Source: an uncultured Bacillota bacterium (lineage in GTDB: Bacteria; Bacillota; DTU025; MWDF01). From it: DNA of 64,000 nt. The position numbers and the translations under genes were made by a program. Location of the stretch: NCBI GenBank assembly GCA_963823655.1, contig CAWGMK010000010.1, positions 416,001 through 480,000 on the forward strand, given 5' to 3'. Positions 1 through 16,844 of the stretch are shown piece by piece (within the stretch, counting starts at the first letter, position 1; the number at the start of each line of letters is the position of its first letter). Under the pieces are notes generated by a model that was not told the origin of the DNA, made no database searches, and was given only the letters and a program-made list of their open reading frames with translations.

Positions 1-2893
<2,893 letters not shown>

Positions 2894-2919
2894 AAGCCGG
2901 CGCGAAGGAGGCAGGACTA

Positions 2920-4171
2920 ATGAAAGCTTTCAGGAACGCGACTCTAATGGCATTGATTGCGGCCATGATCCTAAGCATCGGAGCGGCCGCGGGCTCGGCA
3001 CCGAATGTAAACAGCATAATAATCAACCCCAACCCGCCTTACCAGTCGAGCATCTGGTCGGACAGGGCGAACTATTCCATAGGGGATAAGATCGGCATCG
3101 GCTTCAGGGTCAACAAGGATTCCTACGCCTATGTGTTCTCGATAGACGCAACCGGGGTTGTAAGGCTCATATTCCCGAACATTTACTCGTCGGACAACAA
3201 GGTTAAGGCGAACAGGGCCTATTCCCTGCCCGACAACAACAAGTACAATTTCACGATCGGCGGCCCTGCGGGCACTGACCAGCTGGTGCTCATAAGCACC
3301 CCCAACAAGATAGATGACACGGACTGGCTGAGAAGGTCCCTGCAGCAGAACAGCTTCGCCCCGCAGGTGAACATCAATATTGCGGCGGACGGCTTCATGG
3401 CGCAGATCAAGAGCGTGATTATCACCCCTGTTTTCAAGAATGAGTGGTCCAGCGCTTATGCCACATATACAGTGGGCGGATGGGTCAACATCCCGACGCC
3501 GGTGACGCCTCCCGTAGTTGTGGTGCCGCCTGTTGTGGTAAACCCGCCAGTTATAGTGAACCCTCCGGTTATCAACCCGGTATTGCTGTACGGCAGGATC
3601 AATGTCTCGACTAACCCGGCGGGCGCAAAGGTATACCTTAACGGCGTGGACCAGGGCAGCAGCCCTTCAAGCATCGCGAACCTCAGGTTCGGCGAATATG
3701 AAGTGACTGTCGTATATCCCGGCTACTACACCGCCACCAGGCGCGTACAGGTAAACGGGACTGCAACGCAAAGCGTCGCAATCACCATGGACCGCATTGT
3801 AGACAGGGCCGCGGGAACTGCAGTGTTCACTAAGCTTGTGGACATGGGCTGGCCTTCCTCAGGGCCTGTTACACGAAGTCTTCTCGTACTACGGCTACAA
3901 CGGCAGCATCAACTTGAGGGCCGACGTGATACTGGGCATGATCTCAAGGATACAGGCCACGGCAACCGTACAGGGCCAGTCGGTGCAGTTCGCGGAGCTG
4001 ACGGGCTCAGGCCAGGATGCAGCTTATGCCGGCAAGGTAGTGGAGTATCTTTTCAGGCCCTTTACCATAAGGCTTACGGTCGTTAGCGTAAACAATGTGA
4101 CAGGTTCGCTTACAGGCGCAAGCTACATCGAATCGATCAAGCTCTACATAGAGGTGTTCTACGTAGGCTAG
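2920..4171 (+). CDS. Secreted DUF4384-like domain + Pro/Val linker + PEGA domain protein (frameshift near 3870)
   Basis: Signal peptide; DUF4384-like YSIGDKIGIGFRVNKDSYAYVFSIDATGVVRLIFPN; PEGA-like GRINVSTNPAGAKVYLNG; C-terminus continues in ORF 3836..4171. Confidence 0.8.
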
Positions 4172-4201
4172 CCTTGATGGCAACTAAGAGCATGGATATT
4201 G

Positions 4202-4230
4202 GCGGCGGGGGGATGCCCTCCGCCGCTTTT
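4202..4230 (+). terminator. Intrinsic terminator
   Basis: GCGGCGGGGG...CCTCCGCCGC followed by TTTT. Confidence 0.75.
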
Positions 4231-4239
4231 CCCGCTTCT

Positions 4240-4269
4240 TTTACAGGAAATCGGCCAAGTTGCTATAAT
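4240..4269 (+). promoter_or_regulatory. SigA-type promoter of asnS
   Basis: TTTACA-N18-TATAAT with extended -10 TG. Confidence 0.7.
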
Positions 4270-4306
4270 ATAGTATTAGCTGCATGAAAAACAGGAGGTG
4301 GGCCGC

Positions 4307-5602
4307 ATGGCCTCATTGGCCACAATAGCGGGAATCGGGAGGTTCCAGGATCAAGAAGTAGAACTCAGAGGCTGGCTTTACAACAAAAGATCCAGCGGAA
4401 AGATCCATTTCCTCGAGCTCAGGGACGGAACAGGCTTCATACAGTGCGTAGTGGTCAAAGGCGAAGTAACCGACGAGGTCTTCGAGGCCGCAGGATCGCT
4501 TACGCAAGAATCGTCTTTCAAACTGATCGGCCGCGTGAGGGCCGATGCTAGGGCGAAGGGCGGCTTCGAGGTAACTGTAAGCTCACTCACGGTGTTCCAG
4601 ATAGCACAGGACTATCCGATTACGCCCAAAGAGCACGGCACGGACTTCCTGATGGACAACCGCCACCTTTGGATTAGGCATAAGAGGCAGCACGCGCTGC
4701 TTACTATAAGGCATGAGGTAATTGCCTCTGCCCAGCAATTCCTGAACGAAAACGGTTTCTTGAGGATAGACTCGCCGATTTTGACGCCGGCGGCCTGCGA
4801 GGGCACGACGACGCTCTTTGAAACCGAGTATTTCGAGGAGAAGGCATACCTGAGCCAGTCCGGCCAGCTCTATAACGAGGCGGACGCCATGGCTTTCGGC
4901 AAAGTATACTGCTTCGGCCCGACTTTCAGGGCCGAGAAGTCGAAGACCAGGAGGCATTTGATCGAATTCTGGATGCTCGAGCCGGAGATGGCATGGTGCG
5001 ACCAGGAGGAGAACCAGCAGGTGCAGGAGCAGCTGGTCTCGTTCATCGTACAGAAAGTTGTCGAGAAGAGAAGGCCGGAACTTGAACTGCTGGAAAGGGA
5101 TATCAAGAAGCTTGAGAACATCAAGCCGCCTTTCCCCAGGCTGTCCTATGACGACGCGATAGCCATGCTTAAGGCGGAAGGGCACGAAGTCCAGTGGGGC
5201 GACGATTTCGGGGCCCCGGACGAGACTTTGATCTCGAACAAGTTCGACAGGCCGGTGTTCGTGACCAATTACCCGACCTCGATAAAGGCATTCTACATGC
5301 AGCCCGCCCCGGGCAGGCCCGAGGTTGTGAAATGCGCTGACATGCTGGCGCCGGAAGGCTACGGCGAGATAATCGGCGGCAGCGAGAGGATACATGATCC
5401 GGCGCTTATGCAGGAGCGTATGAGGCAACATAGCCTGAGCGATGAAGCTTATGGCTGGTATATGCAGCTTAGGAAGTACGGCACGGTGCCTCATTCCGGT
5501 TTCGGAATAGGCATCGAAAGGACTGTCGCGTGGATTACGGGCTCCGAGCACATCAGGGAGATGATAGCGTTCCCCAGGCTTTTAAACAGGCTGCGCCCGT
5601 AA
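4307..5602 (+). CDS. asnS: Asparagine--tRNA ligase
   Basis: [63 protein letters not shown]; RBS AGGAGG before ATG 4307. Confidence 0.97.
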
Positions 5603-5619
5603 ATTCCTGACGGCGAGGC

Positions 5620-5647
5620 GAACCAAACGTCTCTGTCGTCGTCTAAT
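5620..5647 (+). promoter_or_regulatory. ECF sigma-type promoter of the giant surface-protein gene
   Basis: GAAC-N16-CGTCTAAT matches the generic ECF AAC-N16-CGT(C) pattern. Confidence 0.6.
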
Positions 5648-5685
5648 TATTGAATTGGACAAATCAATCTAAGGGGGGATAGACC

Positions 5686-8600
5686 ATGCGTACTAGAAGG
5701 CCGATGGCACTTATAGTCACAGCTGTTGTCGTCTTCACATTGTTCATCGGTGCAGGCTCGGCGATGGCGCAGATAAGCACACATCTGCAAAATGGCGAGA
5801 GATTTATAACCGAGGGCAATTGGGCATCAGCAGTTATTGAGTTCAGGAATGCCCTGAGCTATGAAGCACAGAATACAACGGCCTGGTATGGCCTTGGCAG
5901 AGCCTATGAGGGCCTGTCTGGGGCGAAAGGCGCATTCGATCGGAAGATCGAAGGTCTTACGGGAATCGCCGAGTCAAGCGACTGGGCGCTGACCGCTGAG
6001 GCATCATCCAACCTGAATGAAGCAGTCAAGGCGTTTACGAATGCCGTTTCTAATTTCCCTTCGAACGTTTCGGCCATAGCGCCTTTGGCAAGGGCGCAGT
6101 TCATGCTGGGACGCACGCAGGAGGCGCTGCTTACGCTGGAGAAGGCAATCAGCCCGTTCCAGCTCAACAACGACGCGCTGGCGCATATGCTGTACATCGG
6201 TACGCTTTCCGGCGATGCGCAGAGAGTGGCATACTACGCACAGATAGCAAGGGCCAACCAGCAGGCCATGTCAGATCCTGCGGTCCTGCACGCCCTCTCG
6301 GCCATCGAGTACGCCAAGGGCGACTATAAAGCGGCCGAAGCCATACTGACTCCGCTTATGTACAGATACGACATAGGCTACATTCCGCTTAAGGCCATGG
6401 GAGATGTCTTGCTCGCACAGGGCAGGCCACTGGAAGCGGTCAACTTCTACAGGTACGCGGCCGGCCTAAACGACAAGGCATCCGGCGCGTGGTTAATGTA
6501 TGCGGATATCATGTCCCTGTCAGGGGACGCGGTAAATGCGGCCTCTGCATACAGGTCGGCGTTGCTGGCCAACCCGTCATCTGTCTGGGCCAAGTTCGGC
6601 CTCGCCAGAAGCCTTGCCGAGACCAACGACCCCAACGGGGCGCTGGGGCTTCTAAAAGACATCGTCGAGACGGGCAATGCCGCAAACCTCGACAGCATAT
6701 ATACCTATAAGGGTCAGGTCGAAAGGACCTTGGGCCAGCTGCAGCAGGCAGAGATTTCCCTTAAGTCCGCCCTGGTCCTGAATTCGGCAAACTCAGTAGC
6801 CGCGAACTACCTGAACCTGGTACAAGGCGAGATGCGCACAAGGGGCATGTCCAGCCTTCAGTTCGACGGCGTATCCATACCTGCTTTCGACGGCTTCGTG
6901 ATCAACGGCGGTGCCGCGTTCACGAACAACCGCAAAGTAGTCCTCAATGTCAACACTTCGGCCAGCTATGTGGCCTTCAAGAACGAGAACTCGGACTACT
7001 CCGCGATGAACTTCAAGTTCGGGAGCACCGCCTCGTACGATTGGCTCCTGTCCGACATCGACGGCAAGAAATCCGTTCAGATGAGGACAAGGGAAGGCCT
7101 CTTCTCCGTAGCGAAGGACGGCCCGGTCAAGGAGATAATGCTTGATTCGACCGCCCCGGTGATCTCCTTCAAGGAGACCAAGTTCAGCTCGGGCAACGTC
7201 TTCCTTATGACGCTGCAGGCGACAGACGCTGCGACCGGCATAGGCTCGTTCTGGCTCTCCGTAGACGGCATAGATTGGAAATACTATAGATGGATTGGCG
7301 GCTCGTTCCCCTTCAGTCTGACGAACGTGCCTGCTAACAAGATAGTATCCGGCGCTATAGTAGACGGGGCGGGCAATTTCATGCCCTTCCAGTCCGATCT
7401 CGGCTCGACTGTCCCGGGACCTGTTATCACTAATGTGACAGTACAGGAGACCGGCACGGGCAAAGTCACGGTGAAATGGAACACCGACAGGCTGGCAGAC
7501 AGCTATGTGGAGTATAAGCTCGGCCAGGCCGCCAACACTGTGGGAGCCCCTACATCGACCAAGACCCACAGCGTGGACATCACAGGGCTTGTCACCGGCC
7601 AGACATACCAGTTCAAACCGATTTCCACCGACAGCTACGGCTTAAGGGCCGAAGGGCAGCCGGTAAGCCTTCTGATAAGCATGCCAGCTTCAGGGCCCGT
7701 CATAAGCAACATCAACGTTACCAACGTGTCAGCAAGCGCCGCCACTATCTCATGGACGACGAATGTGGCAGCTTACGGCTATGTGGTTTATACCTCAGCC
7801 GGGCAGCAGTTCACCTCCCAGCAGGTGGGCCCGTCGCAGTCGGCGCAGGTATCGCTTACGGGCTTAACCCAGATAGCCAGCTACCAATACCAGATAGTCG
7901 CCTGGGATGCAGCAGGGCGCCAGTCCTACTCCGACCCCAGGACGTTTACAACGCTCTCATCCGACAGGGTGGCACCCGTAATCTCCACGCTTAGGATCAG
8001 CGGCGGAGTTACGACTACGGGCAACCGCAATGTCGGCATAGAGCTGTTCGCGACCGATGATTCGGGATATGTCACCGAGATGAGCTTCAGGGATGACGCG
8101 ACAAGCTGGGGTGCCTGGCAGACGTACAACTCCTATGCAAGCTTCATCCTCAGCGACAAGGACGGCCAAAGGACGATATACGCAAGGGTAAGGGATACCC
8201 AGGGCAACATATCGGCCGAGGCGTCCGTAAGGGTCACACTGGACAGGACCGCCCCCAAGATCAGCTGGGTCGGCGCCCAGGTTGGCTCAGATATGGCGGA
8301 TGTGACATGGGATACCGATGAGAACGCCAATTCGTGGGTGCTCTTCGGCTCCTCACAATTCTCGCTCAACAGCACCATGGGGCAGGCAGACTCCACAAGG
8401 TCGCATAAGGTGATGCTCACCGGCCTGCTTTCCAATACGACCTACTTCTACAAGGTAATGTCGCGCGATGCGACCGGCAACTCCTCGGAGAGCTCAGTGA
8501 GCTCCTTCAGGACTCAAGCCGCGGTGCAGTCTGACACCAAGGCGCCTACCGGCTCCATCACGATCAATGACAATTCGCAATATACAAGGTCCAGATACCT

Positions 8601-11600
8601 CTACTTGAACTTGTACGCCACCGACGACAGGTCCCAGCAGGGCGAGATACAGTTCAGGGTGGGCGAGGGGACCAGCTCATTCAACATCAGCTGGGGCAGC
8701 TGGCAGCAGTACGCGCAGATGGTGCAGTACACTCTTGCGGCAGGAGACGGCCAGAGGAACATATGGGTCAGCTTCAGAGACGTCGCAGGCAATGTATCGC
8801 AGCCCTACAGCGCAAGCATAATGCTTGATACCAGGACCCCTTCCATAACCGGCCTGCAGGCTTACAACATAACCACGACAAGCGCGGTCATCGGCTTCAG
8901 CACGAACGAGCCCTCGTTCGGTAGCGTGGAGTACGGCACGAGCTCGTTCTCGCTGATCCTGTCCGTGGGAGACGGCGAGGCGAAATCAGCGTCAGTAAGC
9001 TCCGTTGCGCCAAGCTCGGTCATCATAACACCGAACCCCGTCGCGACAAGGCCGGGCATGACCAGTTTCAACGTAAACATCACTGGCCTCAAGGCGAGCA
9101 CAACTTACTATTACAGGGCAGTGGCGACCGACCTTGCCGGCAATACGTCGGTAACCCAGGTCATGAACTTCAGGACACAGGATCCAGTAGTGGCAGATAC
9201 CCAGGCGCCTACGGGGTCAATAAGCATAAATGACGGTTCACAGTACACAAGGTCCAGATATATCTATCTCAACTTGTTCGCGCAGGACAACAGGTCGCAA
9301 CAGGGAGAGCTCCAGTTCAGGATAGGCGAGGGCATTAGCACCTTCAACATCAACTGGGGCAGCTGGCAGCAGTTCAACTCCAAGGTGCTATACACCCTGG
9401 CGGCGGGCGACGGCCAGAGGAACATATGGATTACCTACAGGGATGCTCAAGGCAATGTGTCGCAGCCATACTCGGCCTCTGTAGTCCTGGACACCAGGGC
9501 TCCCGGCATATCGGGCCTGCAGGCATACAATATTACGACGACCTCTGCAATCGTCGGCTTCAATACGAACGAGCCGGCCTTTGCAAGCGTCGAATACGGC
9601 ACATCCTCCTTCTCCTTGAGCCTGGTATCGGGCGAAGGCGATGTGAGATCGGCGTCCATAAGCTCCGTTGAGCCAAGCTCGGTCATAATCACGCCGAATC
9701 CAGTAGCGTCCAGGCCGGGCATGACGAGCTTCAATGTCAACATAACAGGGCTTAAGGCCAACACGACTTACTACTACAGGGCTGTGGCCATGGACATCGC
9801 CGGCAATACGACGGCGTCCCAGGTCATGAGCTTCCAGACGAGCGCGCCTGTGCCGACGGATACGACGGCGCCGGCAGGTACGATCGTGATAAACGACGGC
9901 ACCAACTACACAAGGTCCAGGTACGTCTACTTGAACCTCTCGGCGAATGACAACATCACACAGCAGGCCCAGTTGCAGTTTAGAATCGGCGAGGGAGCCA
10001 ACAGCGTCAACATCAGCTGGGGCAGCTGGCAGCAGTACACATCAAGGGCATCTTATGCGATGACTGCAGGTGACGGCCAGAAGAACATATGGATCACCTA
10101 CAGGGATGCGGCCGGCAACATCTCTCAGCCTGCCGTAGACTCGATAGTCCTCGATACTAGAGCGCCTTCCATAACGAACCTGACGGCGGGCAACATTAGC
10201 CAGAGCTCGGCGGTGGTGAGCTTCAATACCAGCGAGCCGGCCTATGCAAGCGTCGAATACGGCACGTCCTCATTCTCCCTGAGCCTGGTATCCGGAGAGG
10301 GCGACGTGAGGTCCGCATCGATAAGCTCAGTTGAGCCCAGCTCGGTCATAATCACGCCGAACCCGCCGGCAACAAGGCCCGGGATGACGAGCTTCAGCGT
10401 GAACCTCACAGGGCTCAATGCGAATACTACTTACTACTACAGGGCCGTTGCGATGGATATCGCGGGCAACACCACGGCATCCCAGGTAATGAACTTCAGG
10501 ACGGGTGCACCCGTGCCTACCGACAGTACGGCGCCAACGGGTTCGATAAGCATCAACGACGGTACAAGGTACACAAGGTCCAGGTACGTCTACTTGAACC
10601 TGCTCGCACAGGACAACATGACGCAGCAGGCTGCGCTTCAGTACAGGGTGGGCGAGGGGACCAACAGCTCCAACATCGGATGGGGCAGCTGGCAGCAGTT
10701 CTCGGCCAAAGTCGCGTTCACAATGTCCGCGACCAACGGCCAGAAGAACGTGTGGGTAAGCTACATGGATGCTGCCGGTAACACTTCCCAGCCTTACGTG
10801 GCGTCGATAATCCTGGACACCATAGCCCCTTCGATAAGCAACCTGACGGCAAGCGCCATAACGCAGTCATCGGCGACGATCAGCTGGAACACGAACGAAC
10901 CCACGCTCGGCAGCGTAGAGTTCGGGAGCAGCCCGTCATCGCTCAATTCGGTATCGGGAGATGCAAGCGTAAGGTCCGCTGCTGTAAGCTCAGTACAGCC
11001 CAGCACAGTGATAATTACGCCTCAGACAATCTCCTCGAAGACGGGCAATACGTCTTTCAGCCTCAATATCACAGGGCTTACGGCGAATACTACGTACTAC
11101 TACAAGGCCGTTGCAATGGACCTTGCAGGAAACGCCACGGCATCGCAGACGGCAAGCTTCAGGACCTCGTCGATATCGGCGCCCCCTGTTGTGACCCCGC
11201 CTGTCATCACGCCTCCAGTCGTAGTACCGCCCATAGTGCAGCCGCCTGTGGTAACGCCTCCCGTAGTAGTGCCGGGTTCGCCTACGGCTCTGATTAACCT
11301 CGCGGGCAAGTCGCAAGGGGCGAAGGCGGACTCCAACGCATGGAACAGCGGCAATGTAGCGAGCATGGCGAACGACGAGAGCGCATCCTCCTTCTGGGAA
11401 TCCGGCTCGACCCCTGATGATTCAGGTTCCGAGAGGCTAATCATTAATTTCGGCAAGTCCGTCACATTGAATACGGTAATACTGAAAGTCTCAGCCGCTG
11501 GCTATCCGAAGGCCTTCCGCCTGATGGCAGTCCTGAACAACAAGTGGACCCAGGTGGCCGAATTCAAGGACGGCAAGGTCAAGGGCAACACCAACGCACT

Positions 11601-11721
11601 CGAATTGCTCACGTTGAGCTTCAATGCGATAACGACCACATCCATAAGAATTGAGTTCCTCGATGTGGTGAAGAAGGGCGATCTGGTAAGGATATACGAA
11701 ATAGAAGCATATAAGAAGTAA
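5686..11721 (+). CDS. 2011-aa secreted protein: signal peptide, TPR region, alternating Ig-like and FN3 domains, Pro/Val linker, C-terminal discoidin (F5/8 type C)-like domain
   Basis: AMA-Q signal cleavage site; TPR helices (AWYGLGRAY, AKFGLARSL); FN3 signatures (ITGLKANTTYYYRAVA); C-terminal ANDESASSFWES...LIINFGKSVTLNTV. Confidence 0.85.
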   Translation: MRTRRPMALIVTAVVVFTLFIGAGSAMAQISTHLQNGERFITEGNWASAVIEFRNALSYEAQNTTAWYGLGRAYEGLSGAKGAFDRKIEGLTGIAESSDWALTAEASSNLNEAVKAFTNAVSNFPSNVSAIAPLARAQFMLGRTQEALLTLEKAISPFQLNNDALAHMLYIGTLSGDAQRVAYYAQIARANQQAMSDPAVLHALSAIEYAKGDYKAAEAILTPLMYRYDIGYIPLKAMGDVLLAQGRPLEAVNFYRYAAGLNDKASGAWLMYADIMSLSGDAVNAASAYRSALLANPSSVWAKFGLARSLAETNDPNGALGLLKDIVETGNAANLDSIYTYKGQVERTLGQLQQAEISLKSALVLNSANSVAANYLNLVQGEMRTRGMSSLQFDGVSIPAFDGFVINGGAAFTNNRKVVLNVNTSASYVAFKNENSDYSAMNFKFGSTASYDWLLSDIDGKKSVQMRTREGLFSVAKDGPVKEIMLDSTAPVISFKETKFSSGNVFLMTLQATDAATGIGSFWLSVDGIDWKYYRWIGGSFPFSLTNVPANKIVSGAIVDGAGNFMPFQSDLGSTVPGPVITNVTVQETGTGKVTVKWNTDRLADSYVEYKLGQAANTVGAPTSTKTHSVDITGLVTGQTYQFKPISTDSYGLRAEGQPVSLLISMPASGPVISNINVTNVSASAATISWTTNVAAYGYVVYTSAGQQFTSQQVGPSQSAQVSLTGLTQIASYQYQIVAWDAAGRQSYSDPRTFTTLSSDRVAPVISTLRISGGVTTTGNRNVGIELFATDDSGYVTEMSFRDDATSWGAWQTYNSYASFILSDKDGQRTIYARVRDTQGNISAEASVRVTLDRTAPKISWVGAQVGSDMADVTWDTDENANSWVLFGSSQFSLNSTMGQADSTRSHKVMLTGLLSNTTYFYKVMSRDATGNSSESSVSSFRTQAAVQSDTKAPTGSITINDNSQYTRSRYLYLNLYATDDRSQQGEIQFRVGEGTSSFNISWGSWQQYAQMVQYTLAAGDGQRNIWVSFRDVAGNVSQPYSASIMLDTRTPSITGLQAYNITTTSAVIGFSTNEPSFGSVEYGTSSFSLILSVGDGEAKSASVSSVAPSSVIITPNPVATRPGMTSFNVNITGLKASTTYYYRAVATDLAGNTSVTQVMNFRTQDPVVADTQAPTGSISINDGSQYTRSRYIYLNLFAQDNRSQQGELQFRIGEGISTFNINWGSWQQFNSKVLYTLAAGDGQRNIWITYRDAQGNVSQPYSASVVLDTRAPGISGLQAYNITTTSAIVGFNTNEPAFASVEYGTSSFSLSLVSGEGDVRSASISSVEPSSVIITPNPVASRPGMTSFNVNITGLKANTTYYYRAVAMDIAGNTTASQVMSFQTSAPVPTDTTAPAGTIVINDGTNYTRSRYVYLNLSANDNITQQAQLQFRIGEGANSVNISWGSWQQYTSRASYAMTAGDGQKNIWITYRDAAGNISQPAVDSIVLDTRAPSITNLTAGNISQSSAVVSFNTSEPAYASVEYGTSSFSLSLVSGEGDVRSASISSVEPSSVIITPNPPATRPGMTSFSVNLTGLNANTTYYYRAVAMDIAGNTTASQVMNFRTGAPVPTDSTAPTGSISINDGTRYTRSRYVYLNLLAQDNMTQQAALQYRVGEGTNSSNIGWGSWQQFSAKVAFTMSATNGQKNVWVSYMDAAGNTSQPYVASIILDTIAPSISNLTASAITQSSATISWNTNEPTLGSVEFGSSPSSLNSVSGDASVRSAAVSSVQPSTVIITPQTISSKTGNTSFSLNITGLTANTTYYYKAVAMDLAGNATASQTASFRTSSISAPPVVTPPVITPPVVVPPIVQPPVVTPPVVVPGSPTALINLAGKSQGAKADSNAWNSGNVASMANDESASSFWESGSTPDDSGSERLIINFGKSVTLNTVILKVSAAGYPKAFRLMAVLNNKWTQVAEFKDGKVKGNTNALELLTLSFNAITTTSIRIEFLDVVKKGDLVRIYEIEAYKK
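8533..11170 (+). repeat. Four tandem intragenic repeats, period 663 bp (221 aa)
   Basis: Units start with D[TS]xAP[TA]G at 8533, 9196, 9859 and 10522; each contains YTRSRYxYLNL and WGSWQQ. Confidence 0.95.
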
Positions 11722-11739
11722 CTGTATAGACTATGAATG

Positions 11740-11779
11740 GCGCCGCGGGGCGGGAAGCCGTCCCGCGGCGCGTTCCTTT
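11740..11779 (+). terminator. Probable terminator hairpin
   Basis: GCGCCGCGGGGCGG-gaag-CCGTCCCGCGGCGC followed by GTTCCTTT. Confidence 0.65.
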
Positions 11780-11791
11780 GGAGGGTTTACA

Positions 11792-12963
11792 TTGGGAGTC
11801 ATAAAACTTCAAAATGGCAGGGACAAAAGGGTCAGGGCGGGGCATCTCTGGATATTCGACGGTGAGATCGAATTCTATAAAGGACGCCCTTCCGGGAGAC
11901 ATCGCCGAAGTTGTCGGCAGCCACGGAACATTCCTGGGCAAGGCGATGATCAGCGGATCATCGAGCCTGAAAGCGCGCATGATGACGAAGCTCAACGTCG
12001 ATGTCGACGACGCTTTCTATATGAGGGCGCTAAAAAGCTGCATCGCGCACAGGAAGGCCGTGGCAGGGGGCGCATCCTGCTACAGGGCGGTCAACAGCGA
12101 AGGGGACATGCTTCCCGGCCTTATAGTGGACGTATATGAGGACGTATTCGTGCTTCAGGCGACGACTCTGGGAATGGACATGAGGAAGGCCAAGCTTTCG
12201 AGGATGCTTTCGGAGCTTTTGGGGCTAAAGAAGGCCTATGAGCGCAGCGACATGCCGATTTGCAGGTACGAGGGCCTTGAGCCGGTCGCAGGTTTCATAT
12301 CCGAGCCTTTCGACACGAAAGTCAGGATGCACGAAAACGGCATCATGATGGACATTGATGTGGCGACCGGGCAGAAGACGGGCTATTATCTCGACCAGAG
12401 GGAGAACAGGCTCGCCGCCTCCCAGTACACAAACGGCGGGGATGTGCTCGACGCCTTCTGCTACAACGGAAGCTTCGGCCTTTTAGCGGGGCTTAAAGGG
12501 CGCAAGAAGCGTACACTTCCTGGACATGAGCGAGCCGGCCGTCGAACAGGCCAAGGCCAATGCCGCCTTAAACGGGCTTGAGGGGATAAGCAGCTTCAAG
12601 GCCGCGAATGCCTTCGACGAGCTCAACCACCTCGTCAAGGAGGGCGCCTCATACGACCTGGTCATGCTGGATCCGCCTCCTTTCACCAGGAACAAGGAGG
12701 CCATCGAAGGGGCGATACGAGGCTACAAGGAGATCAACCTCAGAGGCATGAAGCTGACAAAGCCAGGAGGCTACCTTGTGACTTCGAGCTGCTCGCAGCA
12801 CATAGGCATCGAGCTTTTCAAGGAAGTCATCGCCATGGCGGCGGCGGACGCCGGAAGGTATCTCCAGCTTGTAGAGTCAAGATCGCAGGCGAGGGATCAT
12901 ACGGTACTGCTTTCGATGACGGAGACCGACTATCTGAAGTGCCTGATATTCAGAGTAATTTAA
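11792..12963 (+). CDS. rlmI: RlmI/RlmK-family SAM-dependent rRNA methyltransferase (frameshifts near 11885 and 12500)
   Basis: PUA-like RVRAGHLWIF, NSEGDMLPGLIVD, GQKTGYYLDQRENR, LDPPPF, LVTSSCS spread across three ORFs. Confidence 0.88.
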
Positions 12964-12998
12964 ATGGGAGGCAGCCCTTCCATTATCGAGCCGCTATA

Positions 12999-13007
12999 TG
13001 TTATAAT
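12999..13007 (+). promoter_or_regulatory. Extended -10 promoter upstream of rpmE
   Basis: TG-T-TATAAT. Confidence 0.5.
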
Positions 13008-13061
13008 CCTTCTTGCTTTATGTCGAAGAGATAACTCCTTCTCTTTGTGGAGGTGTACAGA

Positions 13062-13259
13062 ATGAAGGAAAAGATACATCCAAAGTACAAGTTAACCAAG
13101 GTTACTTGCGCTTGTGGGGAGACTTTCGAGGTAGGATCAACAGCCGAAAACCTCAGAGTCGAGATCTGCTCCAAGTGCCACCCGTTCACTACCGGCGTCC
13201 AGAGAATAGTAGACACCGGCGGCAGGGTGGAGAAGTTCCGCAAAAAGCATAACCTTTAG
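13062..13259 (+). CDS. rpmE: 50S ribosomal protein L31 (Zn-binding type)
   Basis: [29 protein letters not shown]. Confidence 0.98.
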
Positions 13260-13309
13260 CAGTCCGGGCGGAGCCGAAGCTCTGCTTCAGCTTTGCCCAG
13301 ATCGCGAAT

Positions 13310-13351
13310 ATGTCGGAGCCTTGCTATATGCTAAGGCTCCGACATTATTTT
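13310..13351 (+). terminator. Terminator after rpmE
   Basis: Perfect 13-bp inverted repeat ATGTCGGAGCCTT/AAGGCTCCGACAT followed by TATTTT. Confidence 0.7.
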
Positions 13352-13390
13352 ATAATGAGTTGGACAAGCTTTATTTGGGGGTTGTTTCTG

Positions 13391-13978
13391 ATGGATATGA
13401 GAGGAAACCATCCGGGCGGCTGGATAGAGGTCATCTGCGGCTCCATGTTCTCCGGCAAGAGCGAGGAGCTCATCAGGCGGGTGAAGCGGGCGCGGATAGC
13501 AAAGCAGAAGGTGGTTGTCCTCAAACATTCCATAGACGACAGGTTCTCTTCCAAGGAAGTCGTCTCCCACGACGGCGACAAGCTTGAAAGCATCCCGGTT
13601 GCCAACTCAAAGGACATATTCTCCATAGTCCCGCTCGGGACGCATGTAGTGGCAATAGACGAGGCCCAGTTTTTTGACGAGGGCCTGGTGGGAATCTGCG
13701 ATACATTGGCCGCCAACGGCGTTAGGGTAATAGTGGCGGGCCTTGATACCAACTTCAGAGGAGATCCATTCGGCCCCATGCCGATGCTTTTGGCGCTTGC
13801 GGAGGACGTCAGCAAGCTTAACGCCATCTGCATGAAATGCGGAGCCCCGGCGTCGAGGACGCAGAGGCTGGTAAACGGCAAGCCCGCCAAATACGACGAT
13901 CCGGTCGTAATGATCGGGGCCAGCGAGTCCTACGAAGCCAGATGCCGGAGGTGCCACGAGGTCCCCGGCAGACCATAA
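13391..13978 (+). CDS. tdk: Thymidine kinase
   Basis: [27 protein letters not shown]...YEARCRRCH. Confidence 0.97.
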
Positions 13979-13997
13979 TCCCATGTGAGGTGTATTT

Positions 13998-14903
13998 ATG
14001 AGCGAGAAACACAGCTACGGCGGCCAGGCGGTGCTCGAGGGCGTCATGATGAGAGGGCGCAAGGGCATAGCGGTGGCCGTAAGGAAGCCTGACGGTCAGA
14101 TAAGCATGTACAAGAAGCTGATGAAAGAGGACAAGAAGCCGGCGCTGTTCAAGATGCCCGTAATCAGGGGAGTTGTGAACTTCGTCGAGACGCTGGTAAT
14201 CGGCATGGACGCGCTCATGTTCTCAGCGAACGAGGCGACAGGACAGGACGAGAAGCTTACAAGCTGGGAAGTGGCGCTGACCTTACTAGCGTCTTTCGGA
14301 CTCTTTGTGGGCCTTTTCATTGTTCTTCCCAATGTCCTCGTGTCCATCATATCGAGGTATTTCGCAAGCATTTTCGTCATCAACCTTATAGAAGGCGCGC
14401 TCAGGCTCGCGATATTCGGCCTCTACCTGTACGGGATATCCTACATGAAGGACATAAAGAGGCTCTTCGCATACCATGGGGCGGAGCATAAAGTCATAGC
14501 CGCCTATGAAGCTGATGAACCTCTGGACACAGCGCACATCCAGGCCCATACGACGATGCATACCAGATGCGGCACCAACTTCCTTCTCATAGTCATGTTC
14601 GTTTCGATACTGATTTACTCGGTGCTGGGCAGGCAGACGATACTCGCCCGCATCGCGACAAGGATAGTATTGCTGCCCGTAATCGCAGGCCTTGCCTATG
14701 AGCTGTTCAAGCTGGCCGCCAAAAAGCGCGACAGCGCAATACTAAGGGCCGTCTCGTACCCCGGCTTGCAGCTGCAGAAGCTTACGACCAAGCAGCCGGA
14801 CAACGATATGGTGGAAGTGGCGCTTGCGGCGTTCAAAGGAGCACTTGAGATGGACGGGGAGCCTGTGCCTGCGATTGAGGCCGGCACGGTTCAGGAAGGA
14901 TAA
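13998..14903 (+). CDS. DUF1385 family membrane protein
   Basis: [28 protein letters not shown]; usual neighbour of prfA/prmC. Confidence 0.92.
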
Positions 14904-14911
14904 ATTTCCAA

Positions 14912-15979
14912 ATGGTTGAGAAGCTCTTAGACGTCGAGAAGAGATATGAGGAGCTAGAAAGAAGCCTCTCCTCACCCGATGTCGTATCCGACATGGATCA
15001 ATTCAGGAAGCTCTCGAAGGCCCATTCGTCCCTGACTCCGATAGTGGAGAACTTCAGGGAGCTCAGGACGGTCGAGGAGCAGCTTGCAGGCGCAAATGAT
15101 ATGCTCTGGCACGAGGATGACCCCGAGCTTAAGCAGATGGCCTCGGAGGAAGTAAGCTCCCTGCAAAAAAGGCAGGAGCAGCTCAACGACAAGCTTAAGC
15201 TGCTGCTTCTCCCCAAGGACCCACTCGATGAGAAGAACGTAATCCTCGAGATTAGGGCGGGAACCGGCGGCGAGGAGGCGGCCCTTTTCGGAGGGGACCT
15301 GCTTCGCATGTACGGCAGGTACGCCGAGCGCAGAGGATGGGCACTTGAGCCCATGAGCATGTCAGAAACGGGCCTGGGAGGCTTTAAAGAGGCCATCGTG
15401 ATGATCTCGGGCGACCAGGTTTACTCGCGCCTGAAGTTCGAATCAGGGGCCCACAGGGTGCAGCGCATCCCTGAGACCGAGGCGCAGGGCAGGATACACA
15501 CATCCGCCGCCACGGTAGCTGTCATGCCAGAAGCAGAGGAAGTGGACGTTGAGATCAACCCGAACGATCTTAGAGTCGACGTCTTCAGAGCAGGCGGGCA
15601 CGGCGGCCAGGGCGTAAACATGACGGACTCAGCCGTAAGGATTACCCATATGCCTTCAGGGCTGGTAGTACAGTGCCAGGACGAAAGGTCGCAGCTTAAG
15701 AACAAGGAGAAGGCGATGAAGGTGCTTCGCTCAAGGCTGCTGGAAAAGACCATAGAGGAGCAGCAGTCGAAGTACTCGCAGCAGAGGAAGAGCCTTGTCG
15801 GAAGCGGCGACAGGTCCGAGCGCATAAGGACATACAATTTCCCGCAAAACCGCATGACGGACCACAGGATAGGCCTTACGCTGCATAAGCTGGATATGAT
15901 AGTCGACGGCGACCTTGACGAGATAATTGACGCGCTGATACTCAAGGAACAGAGCGAAAGGCTAAAGAAGGATGAGTAG
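14912..15979 (+). CDS. prfA: Peptide chain release factor 1
   Basis: [20 protein letters not shown] (PxT), GGQ. Confidence 0.98.
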
Positions 15980-16844
15980 GCAGGATGGAGGGCACACTGT
16001 GCTCGACCTCCTGAACAAATCGGCGGGCTACCTCGCCCAGAAGGGGTCACCCTCGCCAAGGCTTGATGCAGAGCTCCTGCTTGCCAACGTATTGGGCTGC
16101 AGCAGGATATCCTTGTATGTAGGATTCGACAAGCCCCTTGGCGAAGATGAAGTGAACTCTTACCGGCAGCTTGTAATGCGCAGGGGACGCAGGGAGCCGG
16201 TAGCCTATATAATCGGCAAGAAGGAATTCATGGGGCGCGATTTCGCAGTCCAAGCCGGGGCCCTGGTCCCAAGGCCTGAGACCGAGCTGATGGCGGAGCG
16301 CGGCATTGAGGCTATACGCAGCGCAGATGAGCCTCTGGCGGCCGAGCTGTGCTGCGGAAGCGGGGCGGCTGGCATATGCCTTGCCCTGGCCCGCAAGGAG
16401 TGCAGGCTGCTGCTGACCGACATCTCGGACGAATGCCTCTCGGTGGCAAGGGCGAATGTCGAGGCCCACAAGCTGTCCGACAGGGCAGAAGTATTGAAAA
16501 GTGACCTTTTTGAATCGTGGCCGGCCCATTATGCAGGGCAATTTTCGGTGATCATCGCAAACCCGCCGTATATACCCTCGGCGGAGATAGACGGCCTGGA
16601 GCCCGAAGTGTCGCTGCATGAGCCAAGGCTGGCCCTGGACGGCGGCCCCGACGGGCTGGACCTTTACAGAAGGATAGCCCGGGAAGCTTCGCATTGGCTC
16701 AAGGCACAGGGCGTGCTTGTGCTGGAAGTCGGGCACGATCAGTCTCGCGACGTCGGTAAGCTCCTGGTTGATGCCGGTTTAAAGGATGTACGCTACCACA
16801 AGGACCTTCAGGATTATGAGAGGGTAGTCGAGGCTATCGCTTAA
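15972..16844 (+). CDS. prmC: Release factor glutamine methyltransferase
   Basis: [29 protein letters not shown]. Confidence 0.97.

Follow-up and report, generated by a model that had tools for sequence, protein, structure and literature searches.

Two secreted proteins encoded close together in the genome of an uncultured Bacillota bacterium carry the same kind of short motif, S-[IV]-I-[IV]-x-P, which may be described as three aliphatic residues closed by a proline. Their genes lie in a stretch of 64,000 nucleotides, here called the window (G000:C10:416001-480000; the genome G000 has 2.3 Mb in 13 contigs). The first gene (2920..4086, + strand) encodes a DUF4384-PEGA protein, 388 amino acids (aa) long as read in the window and called the small protein below; the second (4298..5602, +) encodes a class II aminoacyl-tRNA synthetase; and the third (5686..11721, +) encodes a secreted protein of 2011 aa, called the giant. 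These three co-directional genes are kept as neighbours throughout a small uncultured Bacillota class. An earlier note on this DNA had proposed that DUF4384 recognises the motif and that the small protein docks on four copies of it in the giant. Our preferred reading, which we hold at even chances, is that the two proteins use this kind of strand-plus-proline element independently, and that the loop of the giant which carries it is a class-specific exposed or edge strand. In the small protein the motif would serve the protein's own fold or its self-association; in the giant it would be exposed as a contact strand or added as a further edge strand; and the likeness would be largely coincidental, aided by a shared proline/aliphatic vocabulary that also fills the linkers.

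A motif shared by two secreted proteins

A degenerate DNA pattern for [ST]-[IV]-I-I-[NT]-P had exactly six sites on the + strand, at 3013, 3412, 9016, 9679, 10342 and 11005, compared with a mean of 0.02 after shuffling. Because a 221-aa repeat accounts for all four sites in the giant, these were counted as a single occurrence. The translations read SIIINPNP and SVIITP in the small protein, and SVIITPNP three times and TVIITP once in the giant, so that pattern scan and translations together find all six copies where the earlier note had put them. In the small protein the N-terminal motif SIIINPNP (3013..3036, +; residues 32-39) stands a few residues past a signal-peptide-like segment, and the second motif SVIITP (3412..3429, +; residues 165-170) stands near the end of the extended DUF4384 domain. 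In the giant the copies lie at 9016..9039 (SVIITPNP), 9679-9702 (SVIITPNP), 10342..10365 (SVIITPNP followed by another P, the copy most like the DUF4384 N-terminal motif) and 11005..11022 (TVIITP), all on the + strand.

The scan was extended to all six frames of the genome (10,859 open reading frames, or ORFs, of at least 80 aa; 1.81 million residues). The pattern S[IV]II.P had 10 matches, two in the small protein and three in the giant. The other five were the N-termini of two DUF4384 paralogues on contig C2, the linker of the paralogue at C10:312154-313128, and two short ORFs of 125 and 128 aa that look non-coding. For [ST][IV]II[NT]P, 9/9 matches fell in DUF4384 paralogues or the giant. The earlier note had suggested a proteome-wide scan for enrichment in secreted proteins, and in G000 this pattern is indeed confined to the DUF4384 and giant families, both secreted. 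The note's description of the two proteins as secreted and sharing PPVV-type linkers also holds: both have signal-peptide-like starts, as judged by inspection, and both have Pro/Val linkers. The Pro/Val linkers, those of the paralogues included, also hold looser [IV]3-x-P units.

The likeness was also scored with a 10-column profile, made from 23 distant N-terminal motifs, none of them from this class, and run over 1,709,610 positions of the ORFs of G000. Ranks 1, 2 and 5 were N-termini of DUF4384 paralogues, and rank 3 was the second motif of the small protein. Loop copies 1 and 2 of the giant ranked 20-21 with 14.3 bits; an unrelated 313-aa protein reached 14.7 bits with TSIVVTPQT, and many other background matches scored similarly. 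Pairwise BLASTP of the two window proteins ranked the motif pair NSIIINPNPP / SSVIITPNPP first, with E = 0.34 for this single comparison. By these scores the pairwise likeness of the motifs in the small protein and the giant appears weak. The exact SVIITP match to the second motif of the small protein is confined to G000 and G003, and in family f4 the same segment reads KSVTVTP. Gene conversion between the motif sites was considered and ruled out, since the DNA differs at most codons.

The small DUF4384-PEGA protein

In the small protein, Pfam DUF4384 (PF14326) scores 82.7 bits against a cut-off of 27, with residues 52-128 matching positions 2-79 of the 81 in the model, and Pfam PEGA (PF08308) scores 59.7 bits against a cut-off of 20.8 at residues 225-290. 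The two domains are joined by a Pro/Val linker (3514..3585, +) with the additional [IV]3-x-P units PPVVVNPP and PPVIVNPP and an 18-nucleotide repeat at 3526-3572. Conserved segments flank the Pfam match in the relatives and so, judging from the alignments, the 81-position model is only the core of a domain of ~160 aa with conserved flanks.

The motifs lie in these flanks and are conserved there. An alignment of 26 homologues shows no exception at I34 and N36 and at least 90% conservation at P37, S165, P170 and F172; P37 stays invariant across 48 sequences, including relatives at no more than 50% identity. A profile search of 1.84 billion representative sequences returned 35,991 matches at E <= 0.001, and those listed were mostly multi-PEGA proteins because the query profile contained PEGA. 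From the best 150 of the 35,991, 27 proteins matching from the N-terminus were picked by hand, and P0097 and P0167 were set aside; P0032, P0038, P0047 and P0050 were placed in the near family (the deep relatives P0038, P0047 and P0050 have the motif as K/L-G-V-I-[IV]-N-P), and the remaining 23 formed a distant set of DUF4384 proteins with at most 50% identity and multi-PEGA or other architectures. In most of these 23, [KRQ]-x-[IV]-I-[IV]-x-P-x-P stands a few residues past the signal peptide (in three or four it is degenerate), and about one third of them have a second segment, LS[IV][IV]VxPxP..W, close to the domain end. G021 and G023, which are of other families and in which the repeat of the giant was not found, likewise encode DUF4384 proteins that carry the N-terminal motif. 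Both motifs of the small protein are family-wide features, present also in genomes without the giant.

Structure prediction adds little to this picture for the DUF4384 part. The AlphaFold2 model of the homologue P0005 has a predicted local distance difference test score (pLDDT) of 30-60 there and leaves the N-terminal segment unplaced; PEGA and the C-terminal domain are mostly at 75-90. Foldseek with the model of the small protein found solely PEGA-like matches (carboxypeptidase regulatory domain) and scattered ones, and a profile search of PDB sequences at E up to 1 gave no relevant solved relative.

As read in the window, the small protein is interrupted. Its frame departs from that of the intact 415-aa homologues at about residue 318, with the break near 3870-3885, and the close homologues P0005 and P0006 read on past this point as ...GPVTEGFSYYGYNGS... 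An ORF in another frame (3836..4171, +) holds the remainder of the conserved C-terminal beta-rich domain, as shown by comparison with homologues. The homologues 96% and 92% identical to the small protein are intact at 415 aa, and the break is probably an assembly error or frameshift rather than the mark of a pseudogene. The C-terminal domain itself, ~115 aa and all-beta (P0005 residues ~300-415; window 3836-4171), is conserved in a subfamily of ~400-aa proteins and has no Pfam match. The DUF4384-PEGA proteins of G021 and G023, two genomes in which no giant was found, are 280-290 aa long and lack it.

There are 6 DUF4384 matches in G000, and 1 or 2 in every other class genome searched. The extra genes of G000 lie at C2:67767-68951, C2:69083-70102, C2:113442-114665, C12:52005-53228 and C10:312154-313128. 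The paralogues include one tandem pair, two members without the C-terminal domain, and two with identical match scores and N-terminal residues, one of which is at the very end of contig C2. No motif-bearing neighbour was seen beside any of the five extra paralogues. In the paralogue at C10:312154-313128 (minus strand) the N-terminal motif is degenerate (VKGAIMNNKQPY), and past the DUF4384 domain its linker holds a perfect VNSIIITPP; the linker of the tandem paralogue at C2:69083-70102 contains SVSSIIIVAPP.

The giant protein and its FN3 loop

The giant consists of a signal-peptide-like start, a TPR region, three plain FN3 domains, four Ig-like + FN3 repeats with an insertion, a Pro/Val linker (PPVVTPPVITPPVVVPP...; 11149..11250, +) and an F5/8 type C (discoidin) domain (11251..11718, +; 49.9 bits, E = 4.3e-13, Pfam cut-off 28.2). 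The FN3 domains are recognised by PF16656 (Pur_ac_phosph_N, 160.4 bits in 7 stretches) and PF00041 (fn3, 70.4 bits), and TPR and Big_13 are matched as well. The last four FN3 domains sit in four copies of a 221-aa unit, each an Ig-like domain followed by FN3, with pairwise identities of 57-73%. This repeat of 663 nucleotides was established by alignment; it was not reported by Tandem Repeats Finder, whose longest period was 500.

All four motif copies lie within an insertion of 23-27 residues in these last four FN3 domains. When the third FN3 is aligned with the loop-bearing ones, a gap of 25 columns falls exactly at the motif, and the first two FN3 domains likewise have no insertion. Alignment gap and translation thus agree with the earlier note that the loop belongs to the motif-bearing FN3 domains only and is missing from the three before them. 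In an alignment of 20 repeat sequences (9 genomes), T164 and P165 never change and V161 is found in at least 90%; the insertion is Ser/Ala-rich in its first half, where its length varies. The motif is the sole well-conserved part of a class-specific insertion of 23-27 residues between FN3 strands C' and E.

Repeat 2 was modelled with AlphaFold2 from the 20-sequence alignment (mean pLDDT 75). The model has a good Ig-like domain and a good FN3, a seven-strand domain at residues 103-212, and its best PDB matches are tandem FN3 pairs, on which it superposes. Residues 145-174, the C'-E insertion that holds motif copy 2 (9634..9723, +), have no secondary structure, and residues 154-172 are below a pLDDT of 50. 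The earlier note had set its docking strand against the case of a motif buried as a core FN3 strand. In the model the motif seems not to be a core strand and lies in the C'-E loop, a low-confidence statement at a pLDDT below 50.

The loop motif could be read in 20 of the 21 class genomes and is kept in all 20; G019 has a fragment only. Its variants in the class run from PSSVIITPNP through [RK][AS][VI]I[IV]TPV to RGIAVVP and KVIIVP. In the sister genomes G018 and G010 (L026, L032) the first half of the loop has a deletion of seven residues, SADVGAK compared with the SADAS[TA]PAGDVGAK of L027 and L028, and the [IV]3-T-P part is intact. A phmmer search with FN3 plus loop gave just weak FN3 matches, none of them spanning the loop. 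A survey of 103 homologues of 1106-3520 aa, found with the loop-bearing FN3, yielded 567 FN3-like segments by regular expression; 63 of the 567 are long (some rows overlap), and an [IV]3-[TNSV]-P motif is present in just six proteins, all of class-type architecture.

Distribution and gene neighbourhood in the class

The class, which equals an order in the collection searched, is represented by 21 genomes in 4 families and 8 genera. The loop-bearing FN3 of the giant was matched in 21/21 and DUF4384 was found in 19/21, the exceptions being G019 and G020, which are 84% and 75% complete. A metagenome contig, L087, is 98.4-98.7% identical to the locus of G020 and carries both genes. The earlier note had looked to co-occurrence of insertion and DUF4384 genes in related genomes, and its expectation stands: there is no convincing genome with the insertion and no DUF4384, as both occur in 19/21, the exceptions are incomplete, and a contig nearly identical to one of them has both.

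In 15 of the 19 genomes, G000 included, one contig holds both genes, ~4-5 kb apart and on the same strand; in G005, G007, G017 and G018, which have 150-510 contigs, they are on separate contigs. The order guaB, DUF4384, synthetase (asnS), giant was found wherever context was read in the class. Scans for related loci gave 16 in genome contigs and 22 in metagenome contigs, and those with readable motifs are of the class type. G021 has guaB, DUF4384 and synthetase in order and the giant is absent there, which indicates that the place of the small gene predates the giant and that adjacency alone is weak evidence. No assembly or secretion gene was seen among the neighbours scanned (guaB, synthetase, methyltransferase, tdk, DUF1385, prfA).

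Co-variation of the motifs across lineages

The two motifs were compared genome by genome. The residue two before the aliphatic core is N or S and never basic in both proteins of the window's own genus (N-S-I-I-I vs S-S-V-I-I). Both proteins have K there in genus g5, G009 and G007 (the register is uncertain in G007) and R there in G011, G013 and G008; genus g7 is not uniform, with K in the small protein and R or K in the loop. G008 has R-G in both proteins, a pair seen nowhere else in the class. G010 and G018 each have identical 5-mers in both proteins and G013 has VIV in both, and the own genus and g7 keep III vs VII.

Within g5 the core changes between close relatives. G018 and G010 are sisters in trees of the DUF4384 body and of the giant minus its motif, with support of 88/90 and 97/98; the small protein and the giant both read III in G018, and both read IIV in G010. 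Likewise, the two proteins agree on IIV in G016 and on III in G014. L087 has IIV vs III, so the match within g5 is 4/5 lineages. In 10 g5 sequences, inspection by eye showed no position of the DUF4384 body that changes with the I/V state. Composition was tried as a cause of the co-variation and rejected: the motif states do not sort by locus GC content or by R/(K+R) and V/(I+V) in the housekeeping neighbours, and G008 is K-rich and yet has R in both motifs. The co-variation between the two proteins, as read from these sequences, is suggestive only.

Weighing the explanations

Independent use of the element, the reading placed at even chances above, is preferred for the following reasons. The N-terminal motif is family-wide and occurs also in G021 and G023, which are without the giant. 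The direct likeness is at E = 0.34 in BLASTP, and loop copies 1 and 2 score at background. Finally, [IV]3-x-P is common in linkers, the paralogues have no motif-bearing neighbour, and the genes around the pair are housekeeping genes.

Several observations pull the other way. Among the 1,709,610 profile positions, rank 4 goes to loop copy 3 of the giant, at 19.2 bits the best match outside the DUF4384 family and two genes from a DUF4384 gene. The loop motif is kept in all 20 readable class genomes against a background of variable sequence and length in the rest of the loop, and the insertion with the motif is confined to the six class-type proteins among 103 homologues. With one genome per genus (8 genera), the N-terminal motif is closer to the loop of its own genome, with an identity of 22-26 vs 17-19 after shuffling, and the K/R and I/V usage of the housekeeping neighbours does not account for this tracking at genus level. 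AlphaFold2 puts neither the loop nor the N-terminal segment of the small protein in a fold, and segments that take up a fold only with a partner would give the same picture.

These observations can be used to argue for docking by strand mimicry, a tentative explanation that we rate as distinctly less probable than independent use. The FN3 loops would imitate the DUF4384 N-terminal strand and either bind the same DUF4384 site or pair with the strand itself; the giant would carry one to four molecules of the small protein, and the N-terminal strand may also link subunits of the small protein. If the loop has a partner at all, the DUF4384 protein would be the best candidate. The top non-family profile match lies in a syntenic neighbour, the loop insertion is restricted to the class, and the motif is conserved within a variable, low-confidence and probably exposed loop. 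Conservation is class-wide, with the loop-bearing FN3 in 21/21, DUF4384 in 19/21 and both on the same contig in 15/19. The motifs track each other by lineage in the own genus, G010/G018, G013 and G008, and the sisters G018/G010, like G016/G014, differ at the same position in both proteins. Fusions of DUF4384 to proteases, as described in a preprint cited below, would fit a role in protein or peptide recognition.

Several results weigh against docking. The motif is equally conserved at the N-terminus in lineages without the giant, the BLASTP match is at E = 0.34, exact SVIITP identity is limited to G000 and G003, and the five extra paralogues are without a motif-bearing neighbour. The adjacency may be inherited synteny among housekeeping genes. 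The finding was chosen for its motif, so that rank statistics overstate its significance. As for co-variation, the fraction of shuffled pairings that do as well is 0.001-0.015 over three sets of one genome per genus and 0.01 within family f4, which lends docking weak support. The shuffling takes no account of relatedness, there are few lineages, and the comparison was picked after the data were seen. Within g5, where L087 has IIV vs III, the match is 4/5 and the fraction is 0.30; no DUF4384-body residue goes with the I/V state by eye, and III vs VII persists in the own genus and g7.

A third explanation, which we consider improbable, is that both motifs are read by some other envelope factor (a processing or modifying enzyme, a chaperone, an anchoring structure) or self-associate as in-register aliphatic strands: this would suit where the motif stands, at the mature N-terminus of the small protein and within a Ser/Ala/Pro-rich loop of the giant, and also the motif-like units in paralogue linkers, such as the VNSIIITPP of C10:312154-313128 beside a degenerate N-terminal copy, and the lineage tracking fits a common reader equally well, but the conserved neighbourhood holds no candidate enzyme or partner gene, and no signal of such form was found in the DUF4384 / PEGA domain literature. 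We also know of no signal of the form S-[IV]-I-[IV]-x-P. The remaining probability goes to readings other than these three.

The explanations differ in what they would mean. DUF4384 is widespread outside the cytoplasm and, to our knowledge, has neither an assigned function nor an identified ligand. If docking were true, [KRS]-x-[IV]-I-[IV]-x-P-x-P would be the first ligand motif for a widespread domain that also travels with envelope proteases, kinases and receptors, and the pair would be a new strand-based envelope scaffold system in a deep-branching Bacillota class. If the N-terminal strand and its look-alike in the loop mark a recognition motif, they offer a concrete test peptide and a hint at the role of DUF4384 in protease and kinase fusions. 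If the likeness is coincidental, as under independent use, the two are unremarkable surface proteins, one of them with an FN3 loop peculiar to the class, and the gain is a larger DUF4384 domain with conserved flanks. Altogether the shared motif is a reasonable and cheaply testable lead to a ligand of DUF4384, not an established system.

Other features of the region

Positions 1-16000 of the window hold a series of + strand ORFs that could be named with Pfam: guaB, DUF4384-PEGA, the tRNA synthetase, the giant, a methyltransferase, thymidine kinase (tdk), DUF1385 and release factor 1 (prfA). IMP dehydrogenase (guaB, 1361-2893, +) directly precedes the small protein. The synthetase is of the Asn/Asp type, with Pfam tRNA-synt_2 at 257.6 bits and an OB anticodon-binding domain. 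By consensus match only, a promoter-like site (4240..4269, +; 11/12 consensus positions, extended -10) stands before the synthetase gene and a terminator-like hairpin of 14 pairs (11740..11771, +) stands past the stop codon of the giant; if both are real, synthetase and giant would be on one transcript, apart from that of the small protein. Past the hairpin, a PUA + S-adenosylmethionine methyltransferase (RlmI-like) is broken into overlapping ORFs at 11814-12581 and 12526-12963. Relatives have a single ORF of ~395-450 aa at this place, and the split at 11814-12963 is probably a frame error. No Rfam match was found in 1-16000.

Comparison with known systems

One preprint calls DUF4384 uncharacterised and often fused to protease domains (bioRxiv 10.1101/2022.08.17.504292). 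None of the papers listed as naming DUF4384 is on the function of the family, and among the papers listed for DUF4384 or the PEGA domain there was no description of a pairing between DUF4384 and a giant protein.

Each of the two proteins belongs to a familiar kind and departs from it in one respect. The small protein shares a signal peptide, an N-terminal [IV]I[IV]xP segment, the DUF4384 core and PEGA with distant secreted DUF4384-PEGA proteins, and differs from them in having a single PEGA and the unnamed C-terminal beta domain of ~115 aa. The giant, with its 7 FN3-type stretches and Big_13, resembles the bacterial surface arrays of FN3 / Pur_ac_phosph_N and Big_13 that many homologues of 1100-3500 aa have, and differs from such FN3/Ig-like arrays in its C'-E insertion with [STA]-[IV]-I-[IV]-T-P, found in 6/103 homologues and in class-type proteins only.

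Two well-known assemblies invite comparison with the proposed pairing. In chaperone-usher pili, subunits are joined by donor-strand complementation, in which a subunit fold lacking its last strand is completed by the N-terminal extension of a neighbour. The small protein has in common with these subunits a short aliphatic segment, conserved in its family, at the very N-terminus of the mature protein. It differs in that its gene is outside any pilus operon; neither usher nor chaperone families were among the scanned neighbours (guaB, synthetase, methyltransferase, tdk, DUF1385, prfA), and relatives have the same gene order by ORF pattern.

The cellulosome scaffoldin is a large, repetitive secreted protein that offers several equal docking sites to smaller secreted proteins, through the pairing of cohesin with dockerin. 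Neither cohesin nor dockerin families were among the Pfam matches of the two proteins at E up to 0.01. Docking of the DUF4384 protein on the giant would follow the same idea, but the putative contact would be a strand of 6-8 residues rather than a pair of folded modules.

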